This document shows, piece by piece, positions 1,975 through 17,285 of a stretch of DNA of 24,519 bases (positions are counted from its first letter, which is position 1; every line of letters begins with the position of its first letter). A model generated the notes under the pieces. That model had not been told where the DNA came from, searched no databases, and worked only from the letters and a program-made list of their open reading frames with translations. A program made the position numbers and the translations under genes. Origin of the DNA: Bryobacteraceae bacterium (lineage in GTDB: Bacteria > Acidobacteriota > Terriglobia > Bryobacterales > Bryobacteraceae); assembly GCA_035633775.1 (NCBI GenBank), contig DASQEG010000470.1:1-24519 (forward strand), read 5' to 3'.

Positions 1975-2008
1975 GAGGGGGGCCGCATTGGCCCTCCTCG
2001 ATTTTATT
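1975..2008 (+). terminator. Intrinsic terminator after the PEGA gene
   Basis: 10-bp stem GAGGGGGGCC (1975-1984) / GGCCCTCCTC (1990-1999) with one G-U pair, loop GCATT, followed by GATTTTATT. Confidence 0.7.
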
Positions 2009-2082: not shown

Positions 2083-4902
2083 ATGCCGACCAATTTCAGA
2101 GAATTCTTTCCCCAGGAACTTGCCTCCCTGCTCGCGGCATTTCCATTCCAGCGCAGAATCACGAACGTCCACCTGCACCATACATGGCGTCCCAATCACT
2201 CTCAATTTCGCGGACTTACGTCAATCGAGAGCATGGACCGCTTCCATACGGAACAGGGATTTGGCGGGCTTGCACAGCATTTGACGCTGGCGCCTTCCGG
2301 ATCTTTATGGACCGGGCGCGACTGGAATCGCAGGCCCGCTTCCGCACGGGGCTTTAATGGCAACAATATCGCCGGCCCGTTTATGATCGAGATGGTCGGT
2401 GATTTCGACAGCGGCAAGGATCCGTTCATCGATCCGCAACGCAGCAGTGCTATTGAAACAGTCGCTACACTTCTGCGGTTTTTCGGCTTGCCGGTAAGCA
2501 GTCTGCGATTCCACAACCACATGTCGTCCAAGACGTGTCCGGGCTCGGGCCTCGACTATGACGGCTTCTGCGGTGAGGTCGAGGCGGCGATGAGCGCACG
2601 GCGTGATCTGTCGTCAGGCACCGGCGGCGAGCGCGGGCCTTTTCCCGAGTCGGCGCGTCTCGGCGCTCCGAACTCTTCACGGATTAGCGACCTGGTGGAT
2701 TCGTTGCGCGCGACTACGGGCGGGGCGCGCGATCTGGAATCTGATGCTGAGCCTCCAGAGGAACTTGCGGACCGGGACACGATCCTGATGATGCGTGGCG
2801 AAGGTGTTCCGTCCGGTGCACGCGGGGGTGACCGTGACCTAACGTCGGACGAGTTGGAAGAACTGCGGCCTTACGCCATCAATCTCCGTCAGGGCCGGCT
2901 CTCGAAAGGAGGCATCTTCAACACATCGAAGGGCCACGTTGAAGCGATTTTCCGTGAGCATCTGGTGCGTGCCTATGATTCGAAGCCCCAAGGTGATCCG
3001 CTGCGGATTGTGCTCTGGGCGCACGGCGGGCTGGTGAGCGAAGCAAAGGGCCTCGGCATTGCACATCTGCAGCACAAATGGTGGCTGTCCAATGGATGCT
3101 ATCCAATCCACTTTATTTGGGAATCGGGGCTGCTCGAAACATTGCTGCCCTTCTTCGGCCGTGGTGTTACGCGTGATTTCTTCGATTTCACCAGCGATTT
3201 TGCAATTGAGCAGGCGGTTCGAGTTCCTGGCAGCGGTATATGGGGGCTGATGAAGCTAAGTGCCGAAGCCGCTTCGACTGCTGAAGACGGAGGCGCCCTG
3301 CTGGCAGCACGCCTGCTTGCCGAATTCTGCAGCTCACGGCCGGAGGTGGAACTGTATGCGTGTGGCCACAGTGCCGGCTCGATTTTTCACAACCACTTTC
3401 TTCCCGCGTGCCGGGCGTCAGGCGTGCCGAACTTCGAGTGGGTCCACTACCTGGCCCCTGCTGTTCGGGTGAACAACTTTCTCGAGAAGCTGCATCCGCT
3501 CGTCGGCGATTACGTAAAGCGCATCTCAATTTACACGATGCACGAGGCGCTTGAGAAGGACGACAACGTGGCGCGTGTATATCGGAAGAGCCTGCTCTAT
3601 CTGATTCGAAATGCGCTTAACCTCGAGTTCCGTTCCGACATCCTGGGTCTGGAGGAGTGCCTGCTTGAGAACGATCAGCTGAAAGCGACCTTCGGGCTCG
3701 CAGGGCACAGTTCCGCCGCAGGCGATTGTGTCTTCTCGAAGACCTCGTCCGACAGCGGCCGAAATGCGAGCCGGTCTACAACACATGGCGGCTTCGACAA
3801 CGATCGGCCCACCATGCACTCGATTGCTCGCCGCGTGCTGAAGATGAACGATTCGGACCCACTTAAGGCCGACTTTCCCGTGCAGGCCAGCCGGGATCTG
3901 TTTGCGGGCATGGAGTTTCCGATGCCTGCCGTGCCGTCCGTATCCACCTCGATGCCCCAGGCAACTGCGGCAGTCGCAGCCGGATGTACCGTCCCCAGCC
4001 GCGGTGGAAGTGGCGGTAAGACGATTGCGCTTTGTGTGGGCATCGACACCTATCCCACTGCCCCTCTGAACGGTTGCGTCCATGACGCACGACTTTGGGC
4101 GTCGACGTTCCGAGACCTCGGCTTTGATGAAGTACGCATGCTCGTGAACAGCGAGGCTACGCACGCCCGCATGACGGCCGAACTGACGCGGCTTGTCTCC
4201 GAGGCTCAGTCCGGCGACTGCATTGTCTTTCAGTACGCAGGCCACGGAACGCACGTGCCTGACATGGAGGGCGATGAAGAAAAAGGCGAGGACCAGGCGT
4301 TTGTTCCTGTCGATTACGAGGCAGGCAGGCACCTGATCGATGACGAGGTAAGGCTCATCTTCTCGCGAAAGAGTCCCGGCGTGAATCTTACCTGCTTCAT
4401 CGACTGCTGCCACTCGGGGACCATCACGCGCATGCTCGGTGGAGGTCGACCGCCCTTCGCGCCGGGCGAGAACGCGCGCTTCCTCAAACTGACAGACACC
4501 GAAAAGGACAGGTACCGCGAGTTCCGGAGCACGCACCCGGTGAGCAGGGCGCAGCCGGGGTTCTATGCCGTGTCCTTCTCCGCATGTCAGGACCACGAAG
4601 TAGCGCTTGAGAATGCAGGCCAGGGTGATTTCACTCGCAGGGCAGTGCCGCTCCTCCGCAGCGGTTTTCGCAAGATGTCGCACGCCGATTTCCAGCGTCA
4701 GGTGGTTGGGGCGTTCGGCTCCGCACCGCGGCAGAACCCTAAACTTGACTGCGATGCAGCTGTCACGAACAATGTCCTGCTGGCATGCGTGGCGCCGTCG
4801 GGTCAAATTAAAGCTGTGTCCTCCGGGGGAGGCGTCGACGTCGTGGATCGTATCCAGGCCGGCCTGCGGCAGATCAGTCTTGATCTTGAAACCCTGAGGT
4901 AA
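2083..4902 (+). CDS. Three-enzyme fusion, 939 aa: Amidase_2/PGRP-like N-acetylmuramoyl-L-alanine amidase (aa ~22-165), alpha/beta hydrolase (aa ~255-590), metacaspase/peptidase C14 (aa ~646-900)
   Basis: Amidase: VHLHHT (H32/H33), E103 in MIEMVG, H144-x7-C152 in HNHMSSKTCPG. Hydrolase: HGG 314-316, GHSAG with S430, D493/D494, H568 in THGGFDND. Caspase: IALCVGIDTY, QYAGHG (H721), IDCCHSG (C776), FSACQDHE. No signal peptide. Confidence 0.9.
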   Translation: MPTNFREFFPQELASLLAAFPFQRRITNVHLHHTWRPNHSQFRGLTSIESMDRFHTEQGFGGLAQHLTLAPSGSLWTGRDWNRRPASARGFNGNNIAGPFMIEMVGDFDSGKDPFIDPQRSSAIETVATLLRFFGLPVSSLRFHNHMSSKTCPGSGLDYDGFCGEVEAAMSARRDLSSGTGGERGPFPESARLGAPNSSRISDLVDSLRATTGGARDLESDAEPPEELADRDTILMMRGEGVPSGARGGDRDLTSDELEELRPYAINLRQGRLSKGGIFNTSKGHVEAIFREHLVRAYDSKPQGDPLRIVLWAHGGLVSEAKGLGIAHLQHKWWLSNGCYPIHFIWESGLLETLLPFFGRGVTRDFFDFTSDFAIEQAVRVPGSGIWGLMKLSAEAASTAEDGGALLAARLLAEFCSSRPEVELYACGHSAGSIFHNHFLPACRASGVPNFEWVHYLAPAVRVNNFLEKLHPLVGDYVKRISIYTMHEALEKDDNVARVYRKSLLYLIRNALNLEFRSDILGLEECLLENDQLKATFGLAGHSSAAGDCVFSKTSSDSGRNASRSTTHGGFDNDRPTMHSIARRVLKMNDSDPLKADFPVQASRDLFAGMEFPMPAVPSVSTSMPQATAAVAAGCTVPSRGGSGGKTIALCVGIDTYPTAPLNGCVHDARLWASTFRDLGFDEVRMLVNSEATHARMTAELTRLVSEAQSGDCIVFQYAGHGTHVPDMEGDEEKGEDQAFVPVDYEAGRHLIDDEVRLIFSRKSPGVNLTCFIDCCHSGTITRMLGGGRPPFAPGENARFLKLTDTEKDRYREFRSTHPVSRAQPGFYAVSFSACQDHEVALENAGQGDFTRRAVPLLRSGFRKMSHADFQRQVVGAFGSAPRQNPKLDCDAAVTNNVLLACVAPSGQIKAVSSGGGVDVVDRIQAGLRQISLDLETLR

Positions 4903-4909
4903 AGAGCGA

Positions 4910-6544
4910 ATGGAGTTTCAATGGGGCAGCAGGATCACCAAGCCTGCCAATTGCATTCCCTATGAGCGGACGGCGGATGACCCTGTCTTCCGTCCGCTCC
5001 GCATCTTCGCCGTCGACCCGCTGGTGTCTCAGTTCGAAGGCGCGATAGCTACCGTTCAGGTCCCGTACGAGCCGCTGAAGCCGGGCCCTGTCGGTAGCAC
5101 CATGGAAGTTCTCTGTCACGACGGGTATCAGGAGAACGAGCCCGCCGATCTCGACAACCCGCGAGTCCTGATTGAGAACGGGTACGCTCCATCGGTAACG
5201 AACCCGAAGTTCCATCACCAGATGACGTATGCAGTTGCATCGCTGATCTGTGCAGCGTTTCGCAAAGCGCTCGGGCGGCAGATTCTCTGGGGCTTTGACG
5301 CACCGCGCCTGCGAATACGGCCTCACGTTCCCGGAGTGGCGGATGCGTGCTACGACAAGGCAACGGGAGAACTGCGCTTCGGCTACAGCAAGGATGGTGA
5401 CGGGCGGTACGTGTTCGCAGCCCTGTCCCACGACGTGATTGCACACGAGTGTGCCCATGCGCTGCTCGATGCGCTTCGCACTCACCTCAACTTGCGTTCG
5501 AATCCGGACGTTGAGGCTTTCCACGAAGGTTTCGCCGACCTTGTCGCACTCCTGCAACACTTCACCTATCCAGAGGTAGTGCGCGCCGCGATTCAGAAGG
5601 CCGGCGGGAACCTGGCGCGCGCGAGTCTGCTGACCGAGATCGCCAGCGTGCTCGGCTACAACATCCCTGCAGCAGCCGAGCGCACCGGAGTGCGGAGCGG
5701 TGTCCGTGTCGAGGCGGAGAACGTTGACGACCCGCACACTCGCGGATCAAGGCTGGTTGTAGCGGTCTTCGACGCGTATCTCACGCTATTCCGTCGCAAG
5801 ACGGCACCCTTCATCCGGCTGGCAACGGGTGGCACGGGAGTACTTCCGCCCGGTGCACTGCCGTACGACCTGGTCGAGGTGCTGGCAAAGCGCGCATCGC
5901 GACTGGCAGAGCAGATCCTGCGCATCTGCATTCGTGCTATCGACTACTGCCCGCCCGTCGATCTGGAGTTGGGTGAGTTCCTCCGTGCGATGATCACGGC
6001 GGATCGGGACGTTGCGCCGAACGATCCGTACGGATATCGTGAGGCGTTCATCGATGCATTTCGCAAACAGGGCATCTACCCAAGCGGCGTGAGCATGCTC
6101 AGCGAAGACGCGCTTGTCTGGGGCACGCCCGAGATGCGTATTCCCTCCATAGACGATCTGACGTTTGCTCAACTGCAGTTCCGTGGCGATCCTGCGACTC
6201 CGGCCAGCCTTGACGAGATTCAGAGGCAGGCCACCGCTCTGGGCAGGATCGTCACAGACAGGCGCTACGCCTATGTATTCGGGTTGAGTCCGAGTGATCA
6301 GGGCGCCAGTCCTGCAAGCATCGAATCGATCCGCACAGCGCGGCGGATCGGGCCGTACGAGTCAGTCGTCTTCGATCTGGTCGCCGAAGTAACACAGGTC
6401 CGGGTACACGATGGCATCAGAGTTTATGGGGGCTCAACGATCATCATCGACCCCGAGGGGCGGGTGCGGTACAGCATTGCCAAGAACGTCCTCAGCCGGC
6501 GTCGGTGGGAGGCGCACCGTGAATACCAACACGACGCCCGTTAG
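4910..6544 (+). CDS. Zinc metallopeptidase (gluzincin, M4/M36-like fold) without signal or propeptide, 544 aa
   Basis: HDVIAHECAHALLD (H179-E180-H183) and FHEGFAD (E206, third ligand). Starts 7 nt after the fusion stop, with GAGG at 4896-4899. N-terminus is hydrophilic. Confidence 0.85.
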   Translation: MEFQWGSRITKPANCIPYERTADDPVFRPLRIFAVDPLVSQFEGAIATVQVPYEPLKPGPVGSTMEVLCHDGYQENEPADLDNPRVLIENGYAPSVTNPKFHHQMTYAVASLICAAFRKALGRQILWGFDAPRLRIRPHVPGVADACYDKATGELRFGYSKDGDGRYVFAALSHDVIAHECAHALLDALRTHLNLRSNPDVEAFHEGFADLVALLQHFTYPEVVRAAIQKAGGNLARASLLTEIASVLGYNIPAAAERTGVRSGVRVEAENVDDPHTRGSRLVVAVFDAYLTLFRRKTAPFIRLATGGTGVLPPGALPYDLVEVLAKRASRLAEQILRICIRAIDYCPPVDLELGEFLRAMITADRDVAPNDPYGYREAFIDAFRKQGIYPSGVSMLSEDALVWGTPEMRIPSIDDLTFAQLQFRGDPATPASLDEIQRQATALGRIVTDRRYAYVFGLSPSDQGASPASIESIRTARRIGPYESVVFDLVAEVTQVRVHDGIRVYGGSTIIIDPEGRVRYSIAKNVLSRRRWEAHREYQHDAR

Positions 6545-9033: not shown

Positions 9034-11382
9034 ATGCATCAGAGATTTGCAACCTCAGCAATTGTTATCCTCAGCGCACTGGCTGCACGGGCGCAAGGAC
9101 CTTTGAAACCGGCCGTGCCCGAGCCTGCCCGCGTCGACACTCACAAGGCAATCTCGGCAAAACTGGCAAGGACCGCCACAGGGCAGGGACTGACGCTGAA
9201 GTGGCGCCGCAACGGCAGCGTGCAGTCGGCCGCGGGATTCAGGTCTCGCGCGTATGCGGGGACGAAGCTGCAGGCCGCTCAATCGTTCCTTGCCGAGCAT
9301 TCAGAACTGGTCGGGCGCGCAGAAGTCTTGCCCTTCAATGAGAGGCGTCTTGGCCAGCGCACATTCATTCGCTTCCAGCAGCGGTTGCACGGCATTCCGC
9401 TTCGAGGCGCACATCTTGTAGTCAGTCTCGGCTCGGACAACTCCGTCGGCGGGGTTAGCGCACACCTTGAGCCCGCCGCGCAGGTGCGCGGCGAGTGGCG
9501 GCTGACGGCACAAGACGCGATCACACGGGCGGTCCGGGAGCACGGTGCCGCGGCCTCGGACACACCTACTGCTGAAAAGGAGTACGTGCTCGTGGAACAA
9601 AACGCCGTTCCCGCCTGGCGTGTGCGATTCGACTCGGCTGACCCTGCAGGTACCTGGGAGTACGTCGTAGCGGCCGACGATGGCCTGATTCTCGAACGGC
9701 AGAACCTCCGCCGCGGCGTCAGTGCACAAGGTTATGCTTATCCGCGGAATCCCGTCCGAGGCGAGCGTGAACGCGTGATGCTGGACAATCTTGGGACTGA
9801 CGGTTCGCTGACCAGCGCACAAACCAAAGTCTTCTCTTACCTGCCTGCTCTGAAAGGCCAGGTTGAACCAGGAACTGTGGTGCAGGGCGCGGCCATGCGA
9901 GGCGGCAACTTTCTGTACGAGGCCGATGACGCGCGAGCCGCCGAGGTGCAACTCTACTGGGGCATGGAAACCGCGAGCGCACGGTTTCGCGCACTCGGTT
10001 TCGAGGGCTTCTCGCAGCCACTTCAGGGTGTGGTCCTCTACCAGGACTGGGACCCGGAGAAGAAGCGCTTCATCGGGGCGGACAATGCGTTCTTCAAGCC
10101 GGGCGCGTTCGGTGAAGGCCGCGGTGGTATTTTCTTCTACCTGACGAGCCGACAGGGCGACACTTCTCTCGACACCGACGTCATTTTTCACGAGTACACG
10201 CATGCGGTGGTCAACGAACTCGTGGGTCCGCGACAGAGTGCAGGCTTCCGAGCACTAAACGAAGGCACAGCCGATTACTTTTCCAGCAGCTTCCTCGACG
10301 ACCCTGTGATGGCGGAGTATGTGGCGAAGATCTTCGGCCTGCGGTCCCCGTTCCTTCGCAGGACCGACAATGAGCAAGCCTGGCCCTACAGCGCAGTTGG
10401 AGAAGAGCACGCCGACGGCAACATCTGGAGCGGCGCCTTGTGGGATGTTCGGCGCGTGCTCGGTGCGGCAGCAACGGATGAGATCGCAATTAACACCGTT
10501 GCGTTCCTGTCGCCCGACGCAGAGTTCTACGATGCGGCAGAGATGGCTGTGCTCACGGCTGAGGAGCTTTATGGTGAGCGCACGGCGGAGCTGGTCGCTA
10601 AAGTGATGGGGCAGCGCGGTCTGCTCACGCAGGCCGCAGAAACTGCCGCGAATTCACGATGGCTTGAGTCTGGCGCCTCTGCCGAGGGAACGATTGCAGC
10701 TGCCAGGCCCGGGTACCTCCTTCTCGGCGAGCAGCAATACAGGATCGAAGTGCCGCATCGCGCGACAAAGTTGAACGTTCGCGTACGGGCGAACAGCGAC
10801 GCGCGATTCTACATCCGTTATCGCGTGCCGGTCACCATCGAACAAGGCAAGCTGCAGGCCGAACAAATGTCGGACACCGGGACGAGTCTGGGCGGGTACC
10901 TGTCTGTTGAAAATACCCCGGAGCTCCAGGCCGGCACATACTACGTCGCTGTCGTCAACGCTTCAACGAGCCCGCTTGAGTATAGTGTGCGAGTTGAGGT
11001 GGACGACTACAACCCCGCCGCTCGTCCTGCCCTTATCGCTGTCCGTGACGGTGAGACTGTCCAGGGGTCGCTGCCGTCAGGACCGTTCCTCGGCTCGAGG
11101 CAGTTCGCGGTCGAGGTGCCCGAAGGCACGTCTGCCCTGTCCCTCACGCTGGAAGGTGACGAGGACGTTGACCTGTACGTTCGTCAGGGCCGTTTCGTGA
11201 CCGTCAACGGCACCGGGTTCCCGGAAGCCGATCTGGTCGCCAACAGCCCCGACACCCGTGAGTACCTTCGCATTACAGGAGAGAACGGCGGGCCCATACC
11301 GCCCGGCGTCTACGTTGTAGGGACATATAACTACAGTCAGGCAACCACGCGCTTTCGCTTAACGGCCCGCTTTGAGCGGTGA
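9034..11382 (+). CDS. Secreted M36/M4-family zinc metallopeptidase with FTP/PepSY propeptide and two C-terminal PPC-like beta domains, 782 aa
   Basis: Signal peptide, propeptide-like FIRFQQRLHGIPL and AWRVRF...WEYVVAADDG, VIFHEYTH (H386-E387-H390), LNEGTADY, EEHADGNIWSGALWD, and repeated YRIEVP/FAVEVP...DxDxYxR modules. Confidence 0.88.
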   Translation: MHQRFATSAIVILSALAARAQGPLKPAVPEPARVDTHKAISAKLARTATGQGLTLKWRRNGSVQSAAGFRSRAYAGTKLQAAQSFLAEHSELVGRAEVLPFNERRLGQRTFIRFQQRLHGIPLRGAHLVVSLGSDNSVGGVSAHLEPAAQVRGEWRLTAQDAITRAVREHGAAASDTPTAEKEYVLVEQNAVPAWRVRFDSADPAGTWEYVVAADDGLILERQNLRRGVSAQGYAYPRNPVRGERERVMLDNLGTDGSLTSAQTKVFSYLPALKGQVEPGTVVQGAAMRGGNFLYEADDARAAEVQLYWGMETASARFRALGFEGFSQPLQGVVLYQDWDPEKKRFIGADNAFFKPGAFGEGRGGIFFYLTSRQGDTSLDTDVIFHEYTHAVVNELVGPRQSAGFRALNEGTADYFSSSFLDDPVMAEYVAKIFGLRSPFLRRTDNEQAWPYSAVGEEHADGNIWSGALWDVRRVLGAAATDEIAINTVAFLSPDAEFYDAAEMAVLTAEELYGERTAELVAKVMGQRGLLTQAAETAANSRWLESGASAEGTIAAARPGYLLLGEQQYRIEVPHRATKLNVRVRANSDARFYIRYRVPVTIEQGKLQAEQMSDTGTSLGGYLSVENTPELQAGTYYVAVVNASTSPLEYSVRVEVDDYNPAARPALIAVRDGETVQGSLPSGPFLGSRQFAVEVPEGTSALSLTLEGDEDVDLYVRQGRFVTVNGTGFPEADLVANSPDTREYLRITGENGGPIPPGVYVVGTYNYSQATTRFRLTARFER

Positions 11383-14644: not shown

Positions 14645-17285
14645 CTACTGCGATCGAAGCGTAGCGGCAGGATCGATGCGGATAGCTCGGATTGCGGGCG
14701 GTAGTGCAGCGACGATCGCCACCGCCAGAATCACCGCAGCCGGAAGTGCGAGCATGGCCACGTCGGTTGCCTCCACGCCGAAGAGCATGGATCGGACGTA
14801 TCGCTCGCACGCCAGCCCGATCGCCACGCCCGCGAAGGCTCCCACCATCACCATAGCCAGCGTCTCCGATGCGATGCCGCGCAACACCAGTGAGGCTCTT
14901 GCACCGAGCGCCATCCGAATGCCGATCTCGCGCCGCTGCTGCAGCACCGAATAATCCAGCACACCAAACAAACCGACGCCCGCCAGCAACAGCGCCAGGC
15001 CGGAGAAAAACAACGCTATAGCCGCCAGCAGCCGTTCGCGGACGGTATAGGCGTCGATCAACTCGCGTTGCGTTCTTAGATTACTCACGCGGAACTCGGA
15101 TCGAGCACGGGAAACTTCGCTTCGCAGCACGGCGGCGAGTTGCGGCGAGTCCGCCTGTGACGTGCGAACCAGAATTGTCGCGTCCCTGACGGGCTGCGTT
15201 TGCGCCTTTGCATCCACCGAGCGGAAGGGCAGGTACACCACGGGCACGATCGGCTCCCGCGGTCCGGCATATCTTGCATTCGCTGCGACACCGACGATCT
15301 CATAGGGCGCTTGTCCGAAAGTGATCTCGAACGTCTTGCCGAGAGGGTTTTCCCCGCTGAAGTACTGCCGGACGAATGCCTCGTTCACGATTGCAGCTCC
15401 CGGCGTGGCGTCGCCCTCGCGCAAGTCTCTGCCCGCCATCAGCGGAATCTTCATTGTTTCCAACCAGCCAGGCGACATCGTCAAAATGTAGGGCAGCACC
15501 TGCTCGGGCGCCCCCTTTCGCACTGAGATGTACTCGTTCCAGGTTCGGCCGCTCATCAGCGCCTGCCCGGAAAACGCGACGGACTGAACTCCCGGTACCG
15601 AGCGGAGGTGATCTGCCACCTGCGCCCACGCCTGCGGTAACTGCGGGGTGGCGGCGACAGTATCGAGCACAAGCAGCCGGTCGGCATCGAAGCCCAGCGG
15701 CTGATCGGTCAATTTCTGATACGTTCCGACGAAGAGGCCTCCGGCAAAGTGCACCACGAAGCAGAACGCAACCTGCACACCCACCAGCGCGCGCATGAAC
15801 CGACGGCGCTGGTGGGGGTCTTCACCGCCCTTCAGAGCGCTCGCGGGCCTCACGCTGGACGCCCTCAAGGCCGGTGCCAGTCCAAACAGCACGGTTGCGG
15901 CAAGCGTCACACCGGCTCCGAATCCGAGTACCCTCCAATCAGGCGGCAGATAGATTCTCGCCGGATCATCCGGCGGGTTGATCATCGAGACGATGAAGGG
16001 CGCCGACCACCATGCAAACACCGCCCCTGCTGCGGTGGCCAGCACAGCCAGGCACAGGCTTTCCATCATTACGAGCTGGATGAGCCGGGCACGTCCGGCA
16101 CCGATCGACACGCGCAGTGCCATCTCCCGCGCTCTCGATGCAGCACGGGCGGACATGAGGTTCGCAACGTTGACACAAGCGATCAGCAGGACCAGCGCAA
16201 CCAGCACTGCAACTGCCACTAAGCCGCTTCTGTTGCTTTGCTGGATGTTGGAGTACCCCGACGACGCAGGCCTAAGTGCCGCCCTGCGCTTCAGAAATAT
16301 CTGCTTGTCCGCGCTGGGCATGCCAGTGAAGCCCTTCACCCGCCGCTGCTGGAAAGCCTGAAAAGGGCCCTGAAAGCGATCCTCAACGGACTTCAGCGCC
16401 ACGCCGGGATGCAGGTGCAGCATGGCTCGAAGCCAGTGAGCACCTATGCGGTCGACCGAGGGGTGCATGACCGCGGGGACGAAGATATCGACGGACACGC
16501 CGGGCTCGGTTCCTGTGAATGGCGCAGCTACCGATCACCTCGAACACCTGATTGCCGGCCCGGAACGTGCGCCCAGGAATGTTTCGATCCTGGCCAAAGC
16601 GGCGGGTCCAATAGTCATGGGAGAGAACCGCATAGGGGTGGGCGCCCGGCGTTCTGTCATCGCGCTCAGTCAGGACCCGGCCGATCGCCGGCTGAAGTCC
16701 AAAGGTCGTGAACATGGACCCAGATACGTATTGCCGCCGTGCTTTCTCAATCTCGGTGCTTCCTGACCAGTTCACGTCGACGCGCTCGGCAAAGGAAATC
16801 GCGAGCAGCTCGGCCTCGCCCCGCGCTGCTTCGCGCAGTTCGCGGAAAAGTGGATATTGCATTCCGTCGCCGAAGGTGACCTGGCCATCCCTGCCGGGAA
16901 TCAGCACGCCAGCTATGTGCAGCCGTTCGGCAGAAAGGATCGGCAGCGGCCGAAGCAGCAGTGCATCTATGAGGCGGAACGCCGAAATGGATGCTCCCAC
17001 GGCCAGTCCGAGAGACAGCACCGCCGCAGCGGACGTGACGGGACTTTTGGCGATCTGTCGGGCGGCGAAGACAGCATCGGCTCGGAGCGACTCGGCCCAC
17101 GCGAGTGTTCGAATGTCCCGGCTTGCCTCACGATGCTGCAGCGCATTGCCCAGAGCTGCCCGCGCCGTGGCGGGATCGTCGCCGTTGCTGATTGCTTCTT
17201 CGACGTGAGCGTTTAGCTCCTCATCCAGGTCGCGGTTCAGGCGATCGCCCTTGAAGAGGTTCCGAATGCGCGTGATCAGAGACAT
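14645..17285 (-). pseudogene. ADOP (acidobacterial duplicated orphan permease, MacB-like), split by one frameshift near 16530; true pseudogene or sequence error
   Basis: ORF 16383-17285 gives the N-part (permease prefix DLDEELNAHVEE, SPVTSAAAVLSLGL, VLSHDYWTRRFG, FEVIG). ORF 14645-16498 gives the rest (LLIACVNVANL, RAREMALRVSIGA, QRRREIGIRMALGA, IDPAATLR). After ATC GGT the homologous text VAAPFTGTEPGVSVDIF continues in another frame. Total span is 2641 nt (3n+1). Confidence 0.85.

Follow-up and report, generated by a model that had tools for sequence, protein, structure and literature searches.

What can a peptidoglycan amidase domain do on the same polypeptide chain as a caspase, in a protein with no visible route out of the cytoplasm? 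The question is raised by a 939-aa fusion protein encoded in a 24,519-nt stretch of a Bryobacteraceae bacterium genome (assembly GCA_035633775.1, contig DASQEG010000470.1, positions 1–24,519; hereafter the window), which joins an N-terminal amidase domain to a serine hydrolase and a caspase-like protease and is followed by the gene of a thermolysin-fold protein. A preliminary description of the sequence had left two options for the amidase domain, a latent lysin acting after membrane damage or a cytoplasmic muropeptide sensor, the sensor being argued mainly from the replacement of a catalytic Tyr by Gln. We favour the first option, on account of phage endolysin relatives with the same Gln/Glu pair, a Glu of the PlyL type and sister fusions that carry a GH19 domain. 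Judging from its sequence, the domain is most probably a functional N-acetylmuramoyl-L-alanine amidase of the Glu type, and we see about an even chance that it serves a protease-gated suicide module of two genes as a latent lytic effector, which gains access to the wall once the membrane is damaged. The purpose of such a module is probably abortive infection.

Residues 22–165 are assigned to the Amidase_2/peptidoglycan recognition protein (PGRP) family, with a predicted amidase fold. The Pfam profile Amidase_2 (PF01510) matched residues 23–154 (E 2.8e-9; 37.8 bits, cut-off 26), and the score in the genome search was 42.7 bits. An AlphaFold2 (AF2) model of residues 1–180 (predicted local distance difference test, pLDDT, 91; predicted template modelling score, pTM, 0.88) returned an amidase fold and not some other fold; Foldseek with this model gave 40 matches at E<=1e-3 with Amidase_2 endolysins, PGRPs (PGRP-LB) and T7 lysozyme at the top, and also found PlyL and, more weakly, AmpD (2y28, rank 49). 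The translation reads H32-H33-T34, Q65 (in LAQHL), E103 (in MIEMVG), H144, K150, C152 and P153. In a phmmer match to T7 lysozyme (gp3.5; 1aro/1lba; E 1e-6), H33, Q65, H144, K150 and C152 fall on H17, Y46, H122, K128 and C130, respectively, which bears out the T7-like zinc pattern (HHT plus H144-x7-C152, with K-x-C-P) first noticed in the letters alone. T7 lysozyme and the catalytic PGRPs, such as Drosophila PGRP-LB, are the best PDB sequence matches and have the same H-x5-K-x-C spacing. In the family profile Q65 also occupies the column of Tyr78 of PGRP-LB, so that the preliminary reading of a Gln at the catalytic Tyr position holds, and E103, which had been likened to a catalytic Glu, aligns exactly with Glu90 of PlyL (1yb0). 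By alignment and conservation, H33, H144 and C152 are assigned as the ligands of a His-His-Cys zinc site.

The lack of an export signal was likewise confirmed. A signal peptide and membrane segments are absent from both the fusion protein and its partner; the Kyte-Doolittle maximum of the fusion protein over 19 residues is 1.28, its N-terminus is not hydrophobic, and the chain begins directly with the amidase and carries no secretion-marker domain.

T7 lysozyme and the catalytic PGRPs have a catalytic Tyr and no Glu, the two columns being Tyr and Cys in T7 lysozyme and the Glu103 column being Cys or Val in PGRP-LB and T7 lysozyme, whereas the domain described here has Gln at the Tyr position and Glu103. 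In PGRP-LB, the Y78F change abolishes cleavage but keeps zinc and binding (PMC8124813). Considered in isolation, this would speak for binding as the role of the domain. In PlyL, LysGH15 and AmiA, the essential catalytic residues are Glu90, Glu282 and Glu324, 'in contrast to' Tyr46 of T7 lysozyme (PMC12203907). The domain does not belong to the Tyr type, since Gln65 stands at that column, and its Glu at the PlyL Glu90 position places it by alignment in the Glu type, catalysis itself being predicted. PlyL (of the Bacillus anthracis prophage Ba02), LysGH15 and AmiA share with it the fold, the His/His/Cys zinc site and this Glu, and PlyL, a holin-dependent endolysin, likewise has no signal peptide; sequence similarity to PlyL is low (E ~0.01 over 75 residues). 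AmpD resembles the domain in being cytoplasmic and in its Glu-based mechanism. However, the third zinc ligand of AmpD is Asp, that of the domain is Cys and the fold match is weak; AmpD gave no match to the family profile at E 0.01, and the domain is not counted as AmpD-type.

The Gln/Glu pair was also found outside the fusion family, in 270-aa proteins with Amidase_2 and PG_binding_1 domains (P0162–P0166) and in Amidase_2 plus SLH proteins on about 10 IMG/VR viral contigs (L084, L085 and L132–L140). On L085 the amidase gene lies after tail genes and immediately before genes for a holin (phrog_6918, E 3e-23) and an integrase, i.e. in a lysis cassette. These phage and PG_binding_1 lysins share 34–43% identity with the domain and none has a signal peptide; in the phage lysins the Gln at the Tyr site always accompanies the Glu. 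The motifs that they share with the domain are HxHHTW-P, DI(A/G)QH, (V/I)EM-G-FD and FH...K(T/S)CPG, while a four-residue insertion before GPFM in the fusion clade is absent from the phage and PG_binding_1 lysins. A tblastn search of 50,697 phage records found only T7-like lysozymes (about 29% identity), the closer phage relatives coming from IMG/VR. A further clade consists of stand-alone proteins of about 180 aa with no signal peptide (L106, L110, L111, L112 and L114; e.g. L111:2220–2798, +), whose genes are conserved between yqeY and dnaG with carA nearby, a housekeeping context; these may be an AmpD-like recycling enzyme of one lineage.

Since the Gln/Glu pair occurs in lysins with wall-binding domains, the change from Tyr to Gln is not a sign of lost catalysis; it is a normal feature of an enzyme subclass, and the main argument for the sensor therefore falls. 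Across the subclass the Tyr site and the Glu site appear to co-vary, and phages appear to use this subclass for lysis. The domain seems to descend from the same subclass as holin-dependent phage endolysins, with no export signal in either. Two properties of a holin-dependent endolysin are found here: the domain lacks a signal peptide, and its closest relatives come from phage lysis cassettes. A third, a phage gene adjoining a holin gene, is missing, the neighbour being a metalloprotease gene in a housekeeping window. Unlike PlyL-type endolysins, the domain shares its chain with a hydrolase and a caspase, is encoded outside a lysis cassette and has no wall-binding domain, whereas the uncultured-phage lysins of the subclass carry SLH or PG_binding_1 domains.

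Family members were found in 426 of about 185,600 species genomes scanned, and at least 412 full-length homologues of the same architecture share 41–46% identity with the fusion protein and are spread over many phyla, including Chloroflexota, Armatimonadota and Cyanobacteriota. Conservation was counted over 81 family sequences and shows that the residue pattern did not arise by chance. H144 and C152 are kept in all 81 and H33 in all intact rows, followed by Gln65 (80/81), K150 (79/81) and E103 (75/81); the hydrolase triad S430/D494/H568 and the caspase dyad H721/C776 are kept in 81/81. Being present in 80 of the 81 members, Gln65 is a fixed family trait and not the decay of one copy. Within the protein, conservation is highest in the amidase core, whose median identity is 0.64; the hydrolase has 0.54 and the caspase 0.53. 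The 6 members that have lost E103, 3 of them from Chloroflexota, retain the zinc ligands, Gln65 and both other enzymes, and 2 of them also lack K150. These 6 have the lowest ratio of amidase conservation to that of the rest of the protein in the family (Mann-Whitney p 8e-6, kinship ignored), which is expected if E103 carries the main function of the domain. We considered the loss of E103 as a sign of a binding-only role and rejected it, since the faster change throughout the domain in those lineages points to decay.

The middle domain gave no Pfam match and no PDB sequence match, its nearest ESM Atlas clusters being annotated as alpha/beta hydrolase or DUF900. Homologues of this domain occur in signal-less fusions of Pseudomonadales, together with a papain-like C1 protease (L099:2330–5020, +; L100:1930–4929, +; L101:2496–4598, +; L102:4099–6162, -; L103:2767–4584, +). 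In L099, a GH19 domain that matches the PWe2 phage endolysin 9ms7 (E 8e-42) is present; L100 carries PG_binding_1 plus GH19, L101 and L102 are shorter forms without a wall hydrolase, and L103 is split into two genes. A muramidase version is known from its ESM Atlas listing and is unconfirmed. Since GH19, PG_binding_1 plus GH19 or nothing takes the place of the amidase, unrelated wall-cutting folds are optional, interchangeable add-ons to a core of protease and hydrolase. By analogy, this interchange resembles the domain shuffling of endolysins; a receptor specific for one cytoplasmic fragment would be less expected to behave in this way. Between amidase and hydrolase of the fusion protein, the linker at residues 166–254 is a candidate site of proteolytic release.

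The second gene of the module starts 7 nt past the stop codon of the fusion gene. No third conserved gene was seen at the examined loci, and this partner gene lies directly downstream in 68 of the best 80 loci; the two-gene unit is patchy across many phyla and its surroundings vary. A PDB sequence search with the partner protein gave no match, its fold being assigned from an AF2 model (pLDDT 87) for which Foldseek returned vibriolysin, thermolysin and LasB. None of the sister fusions L099–L103 has such a gene nearby. The thermolysin-fold domain was detected in 29 of 400 other Acidobacteriota genomes, mostly without the amidase fusion. In five loci (L186:5146–8976, -; L187:3299–6796, +; L188:4919–8491, -; L189:2871–6941, +; L190:4946–8464, -) it forms the C-terminal half of 1170–1356-aa proteins whose N-terminal half is a subtilase (Peptidase_S8), and L192 has it as a separate protein, after which comes an MBL-fold protein. 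It would thus be an upstream part shared by several protease modules, as its sequence relatives suggest, and since it pairs with subtilase or MBL-fold proteins where there is no amidase, it is a better candidate for the upstream (sensor) role than the amidase.

Several variants of the module were observed. In two Hymenobacter genomes (L053:9247–13152, +; L076:9968–13261, +), the gene after the fusion is not that of the metalloprotease partner; the 1301-aa product in L053 contains an LCAT-like hydrolase, an M17_N region and a CHAT protease domain, and the next gene in L076 is its homologue (BLAST clustering). In Azospirillum canadense (L034:7001–11974, +), the fusion extends into a 1657-aa frame ending in a CHAT domain. 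The Bryobacteraceae genome itself contains a second, divergent copy of the two-gene module on contig C203 (L191:1–3006), with the caspase part 42% and the thermolysin-fold partner 48% identical; its amidase and most of its hydrolase are cut off by the contig start. Two homologues look broken, one with a frameshift inside the amidase domain (L061:7001–7540) and the other, from Desulfopila, split into two ORFs (open reading frames; L008:7010–10722).

The following sequence of events, whose trigger, order and cleavage steps we infer, is proposed for the favoured latent lytic effector. A trigger would be sensed or passed on by the thermolysin-fold partner, which would switch on the caspase; the caspase would cut the linkers and license the hydrolase, as in a related caspase/hydrolase pair (see below); the lipase-like hydrolase would damage the inner membrane; and the freed amidase of about 18 kDa would reach the sacculus and strip peptide stems, so that the cell lyses. 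In the amidase, Glu103 would be the general base, zinc would be held by His-His-Cys, Lys150 would belong to the active site, and Gln65 would fill the place of the T7/PGRP Tyr.

The related pair is LcCaspase/LcHydrolase of Evans et al., whose caspase-like protease cuts its partner, an alpha/beta hydrolase of unknown substrate, at two Arg sites and thereby turns it into an active death effector (bioRxiv 10.1101/2025.11.14.688446). A caspase-like protease with intact dyad linked to an alpha/beta hydrolase with intact triad is also what is found here, the two hydrolases being likened by description; in contrast to that pair, a single chain is used here, an amidase has been added and a thermolysin-fold partner gene is present. 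Proteins combining metacaspase and Amidase_2 domains were listed in 2012 by Asplund-Samuelsson et al. from Polaromonas, Nitrosococcus, Chitinophaga and Desulfobacterium, and autolysis or programmed death was proposed as their role; the list comprised four sequences and Pfam content only and did not extend to the type of active site, the hydrolase in the middle, the partner gene or relatives among lysins (PMC3501461). For protease-rich conflict systems, effector domains that attack the wall have been predicted (PMC7159879). In the literature searched, we found no description of the active-site class of this domain, its phage-lysin relatives, the GH19 interchange, or the constant thermolysin-fold partner and its wider use.

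Several points weigh against the latent lytic effector. 1) Membrane attack by the hydrolase is a step that we infer. 2) The role of the phage members of the Gln/Glu subclass as lysins is read from gene context. 3) The subclass presumably also works in the cytoplasm, on soluble muropeptides, as the stand-alone sequences suggest. 4) A quick tree of the subclass gave three well-supported clades (lysin, stand-alone and fusion) but did not resolve the order among them, so that ancestry alone does not decide between the polymeric wall and soluble fragments as the substrate. 5) The amidase comes without a holin or a wall-binding domain. 6) The loss of E103 with the zinc site kept leaves room for a non-catalytic role. 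7) A defence-island setting is not evident in 94 flanking ORFs and the window: the flanking ORFs gave scattered PADLOC matches (LmuA, mads, PD-T4-6, NACHT and others), insufficient to define an island, and a few transposases among mostly housekeeping genes. For the fusion system itself, PADLOC returned only its generic 'caspase' model and recognised no known defence system.

The best-surviving alternative, which we nevertheless hold to be unlikely, is that wall fragments in the cytoplasm, for example anhydro-N-acetylmuramic acid (anhydro-MurNAc) peptides, bind to the domain, which may also cleave them slowly, and that this binding turns on the fused caspase. Such fragments would accumulate after the action of phage lysins or transglycosylases or after antibiotic damage, in parallel with the PGRP-triggered cascades of animals. 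Both the protein and the stand-alone proteins of the subclass are cytoplasmic; tracheal-cytotoxin-binding PGRPs are among the profile and fold matches, and the Y78F variant of PGRP-LB described above shows that zinc and binding can outlast cleavage. Moreover, the extra domains fused to the protease in protease-effector modules are usually sensors. However, Gln65 does not mark a binding-only protein, since it is found in phage lysins and always accompanies a catalytic Glu of the PlyL type. Non-catalytic PGRPs (PGRP-SA/LC/LE) typically lack the zinc-binding Cys, whereas here C152 and both His ligands are invariant, so that the zinc loss of those receptors is not seen. The few members without E103 or K150 do keep the zinc site and Gln65, but the loss of E103 accompanies faster change across the whole amidase domain. 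In the sister fusions, GH19, with or without PG_binding_1, acts on glycan strands and not on monomeric cytoplasmic fragments, and for sensing the thermolysin-fold partner is the better candidate. What the sensor retains of its initial appeal comes from the cytoplasmic stand-alone members and the losses of E103.

Somewhat less probable still is a licensed amidase that starves wall synthesis by cleaving UDP-N-acetylmuramic acid (UDP-MurNAc)-pentapeptide or lipid I/II at the inner face of the membrane. This precursor-destroying effector would explain the missing signal peptide with no need for membrane damage; the catalytic set is intact, and the cytoplasmic stand-alone relatives suggest that the subclass can act on soluble substrates. 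On the other hand, the parallel GH19 fusions cannot act on monomeric precursors, the nearest proteins of readable role are lysins of the polymeric wall, and E. coli expression strains tolerate a relative, T7 lysozyme, in their cytoplasm. Amidase and lipase are also classic interbacterial effector activities, and an exported toxin, delivered into competitors in the manner of type VI effectors with the proteases processing the precursor, was therefore considered; a related lipase-amidase-metacaspase protein has been called a 'destructive weapon' (Asplund-Samuelsson et al., PMC3501461). This reading is very improbable and was rejected as it finds no export or immunity feature: the protein lacks a signal peptide, a membrane segment and a secretion-marker domain, no conserved third gene could encode an immunity protein, no secretion-system gene lies in the window, and the family extends over phyla as distant as Chloroflexota, Armatimonadota and Cyanobacteriota. 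A decoy for phage RNA polymerase, after the manner of T7 lysozyme, was also considered, but would leave the invariant zinc site and Glu unexplained. The rest of the probability belongs to roles that we have not thought of.

Protease-gated death effectors are an emerging common logic of bacterial immunity, and a wall-cutting enzyme has not yet been shown among them. If the latent lytic effector is real, a single chain uniting a caspase and a lipase-like hydrolase with an endolysin-type amidase would give the cell a holin-free means of lysis from within, with the sister families using a GH19 lysin in the same role. If, instead, the sensor were true, the protein would be a bacterial counterpart of the PGRP receptors that unites wall-damage sensing and a caspase, a striking parallel to animal innate immunity. 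The analysis also marks out a Gln/Glu subclass of Amidase_2 that is common to phage lysins, a housekeeping cytoplasmic enzyme and caspase fusions; in annotation, a missing T7/PGRP tyrosine should thus not be taken as lost activity. As the module occurs in several cultured hosts (Pseudomonas fluorescens, Azotobacter chroococcum, Polaromonas and Massilia), the question is directly testable.

Table 1. Features of the two-gene module and its upstream border in the window
Feature	Position	Strand	Evidence
Fusion gene, 939 aa: amidase, serine hydrolase and caspase-like protease	2083..4902	+	ORF, translation, Pfam domains, at least 412 full-length homologues
Amidase_2/PGRP-fold domain, residues 22–165 (Pfam match 2149–2544); assigned to Glu type, Gln at Tyr site	2146..2577	+	Pfam, PDB alignments, AF2, Foldseek
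His33 codon, putative first zinc ligand (T7 lysozyme His17)	2179..2181	+	Alignment; kept in 79/79 readable homologue rows
Gln65 codon, at position of T7 Tyr46 / PGRP-LB Tyr78	2275..2277	+	Alignment, family profile; Gln in 80/81 members
Glu103 codon, at position of PlyL Glu90	2389..2391	+	Alignment to 1yb0; kept in 75/81 members
His144 to Cys152 (H-x5-K-x-C): putative zinc ligands 2 and 3, Lys150 (T7 H122, K128, C130)	2512..2538	+	Alignment
Low-complexity linker, residues 166–254, amidase to hydrolase	2578..2844	+	No Pfam match; poorly conserved save DPxDAE motif
DUF900-like alpha/beta hydrolase domain: HGG motif, G-H-S430-A-G, D494, H568	2845..3900	+	Invariant residues; nearest Atlas clusters
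Caspase-like Peptidase_C14 domain, dyad His721/Cys776	4021..4659	+	Pfam E 3e-24, residues 647–859; PADLOC 'caspase' model
Partner gene, 544 aa: cytoplasmic thermolysin-fold (M4/M36-like) HExxH...E protein, C-terminal beta-rich domain	4910..6544	+	AF2, Foldseek
GC-rich hairpin plus T-run, 3' of upstream PEGA-domain gene	1975..2008	+	Read from sequence

The hairpin and T-run set the two-gene unit apart from the upstream PEGA-domain gene (Table 1). The remaining genes of the window are ordinary (ABC transporter, sulfatase, secreted M36-like peptidase, DUF885, MacB/FtsX, Obg and PQQ dehydrogenase), and no phage or secretion-system genes are among them. The long upstream ORF (495–1958, +) is probably over-called, as a signal-peptide-like start (MRTSRFLMSALSALAAGQVAWA) lies about 210 codons in; its product contains a TrbI-like stretch and the C-terminal PEGA domain. 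The M36/M4-type peptidase at 9034–11382 (+) is an ordinary member with FTP and PepSY propeptide motifs and a PPC domain, in contrast to the thermolysin-fold partner, which has no propeptide. The MacB/FtsX-type permease (14645–17285, -) is represented by two overlapping ORFs (14645–16498 and 16383–17285), which may reflect a frameshift or two genes.

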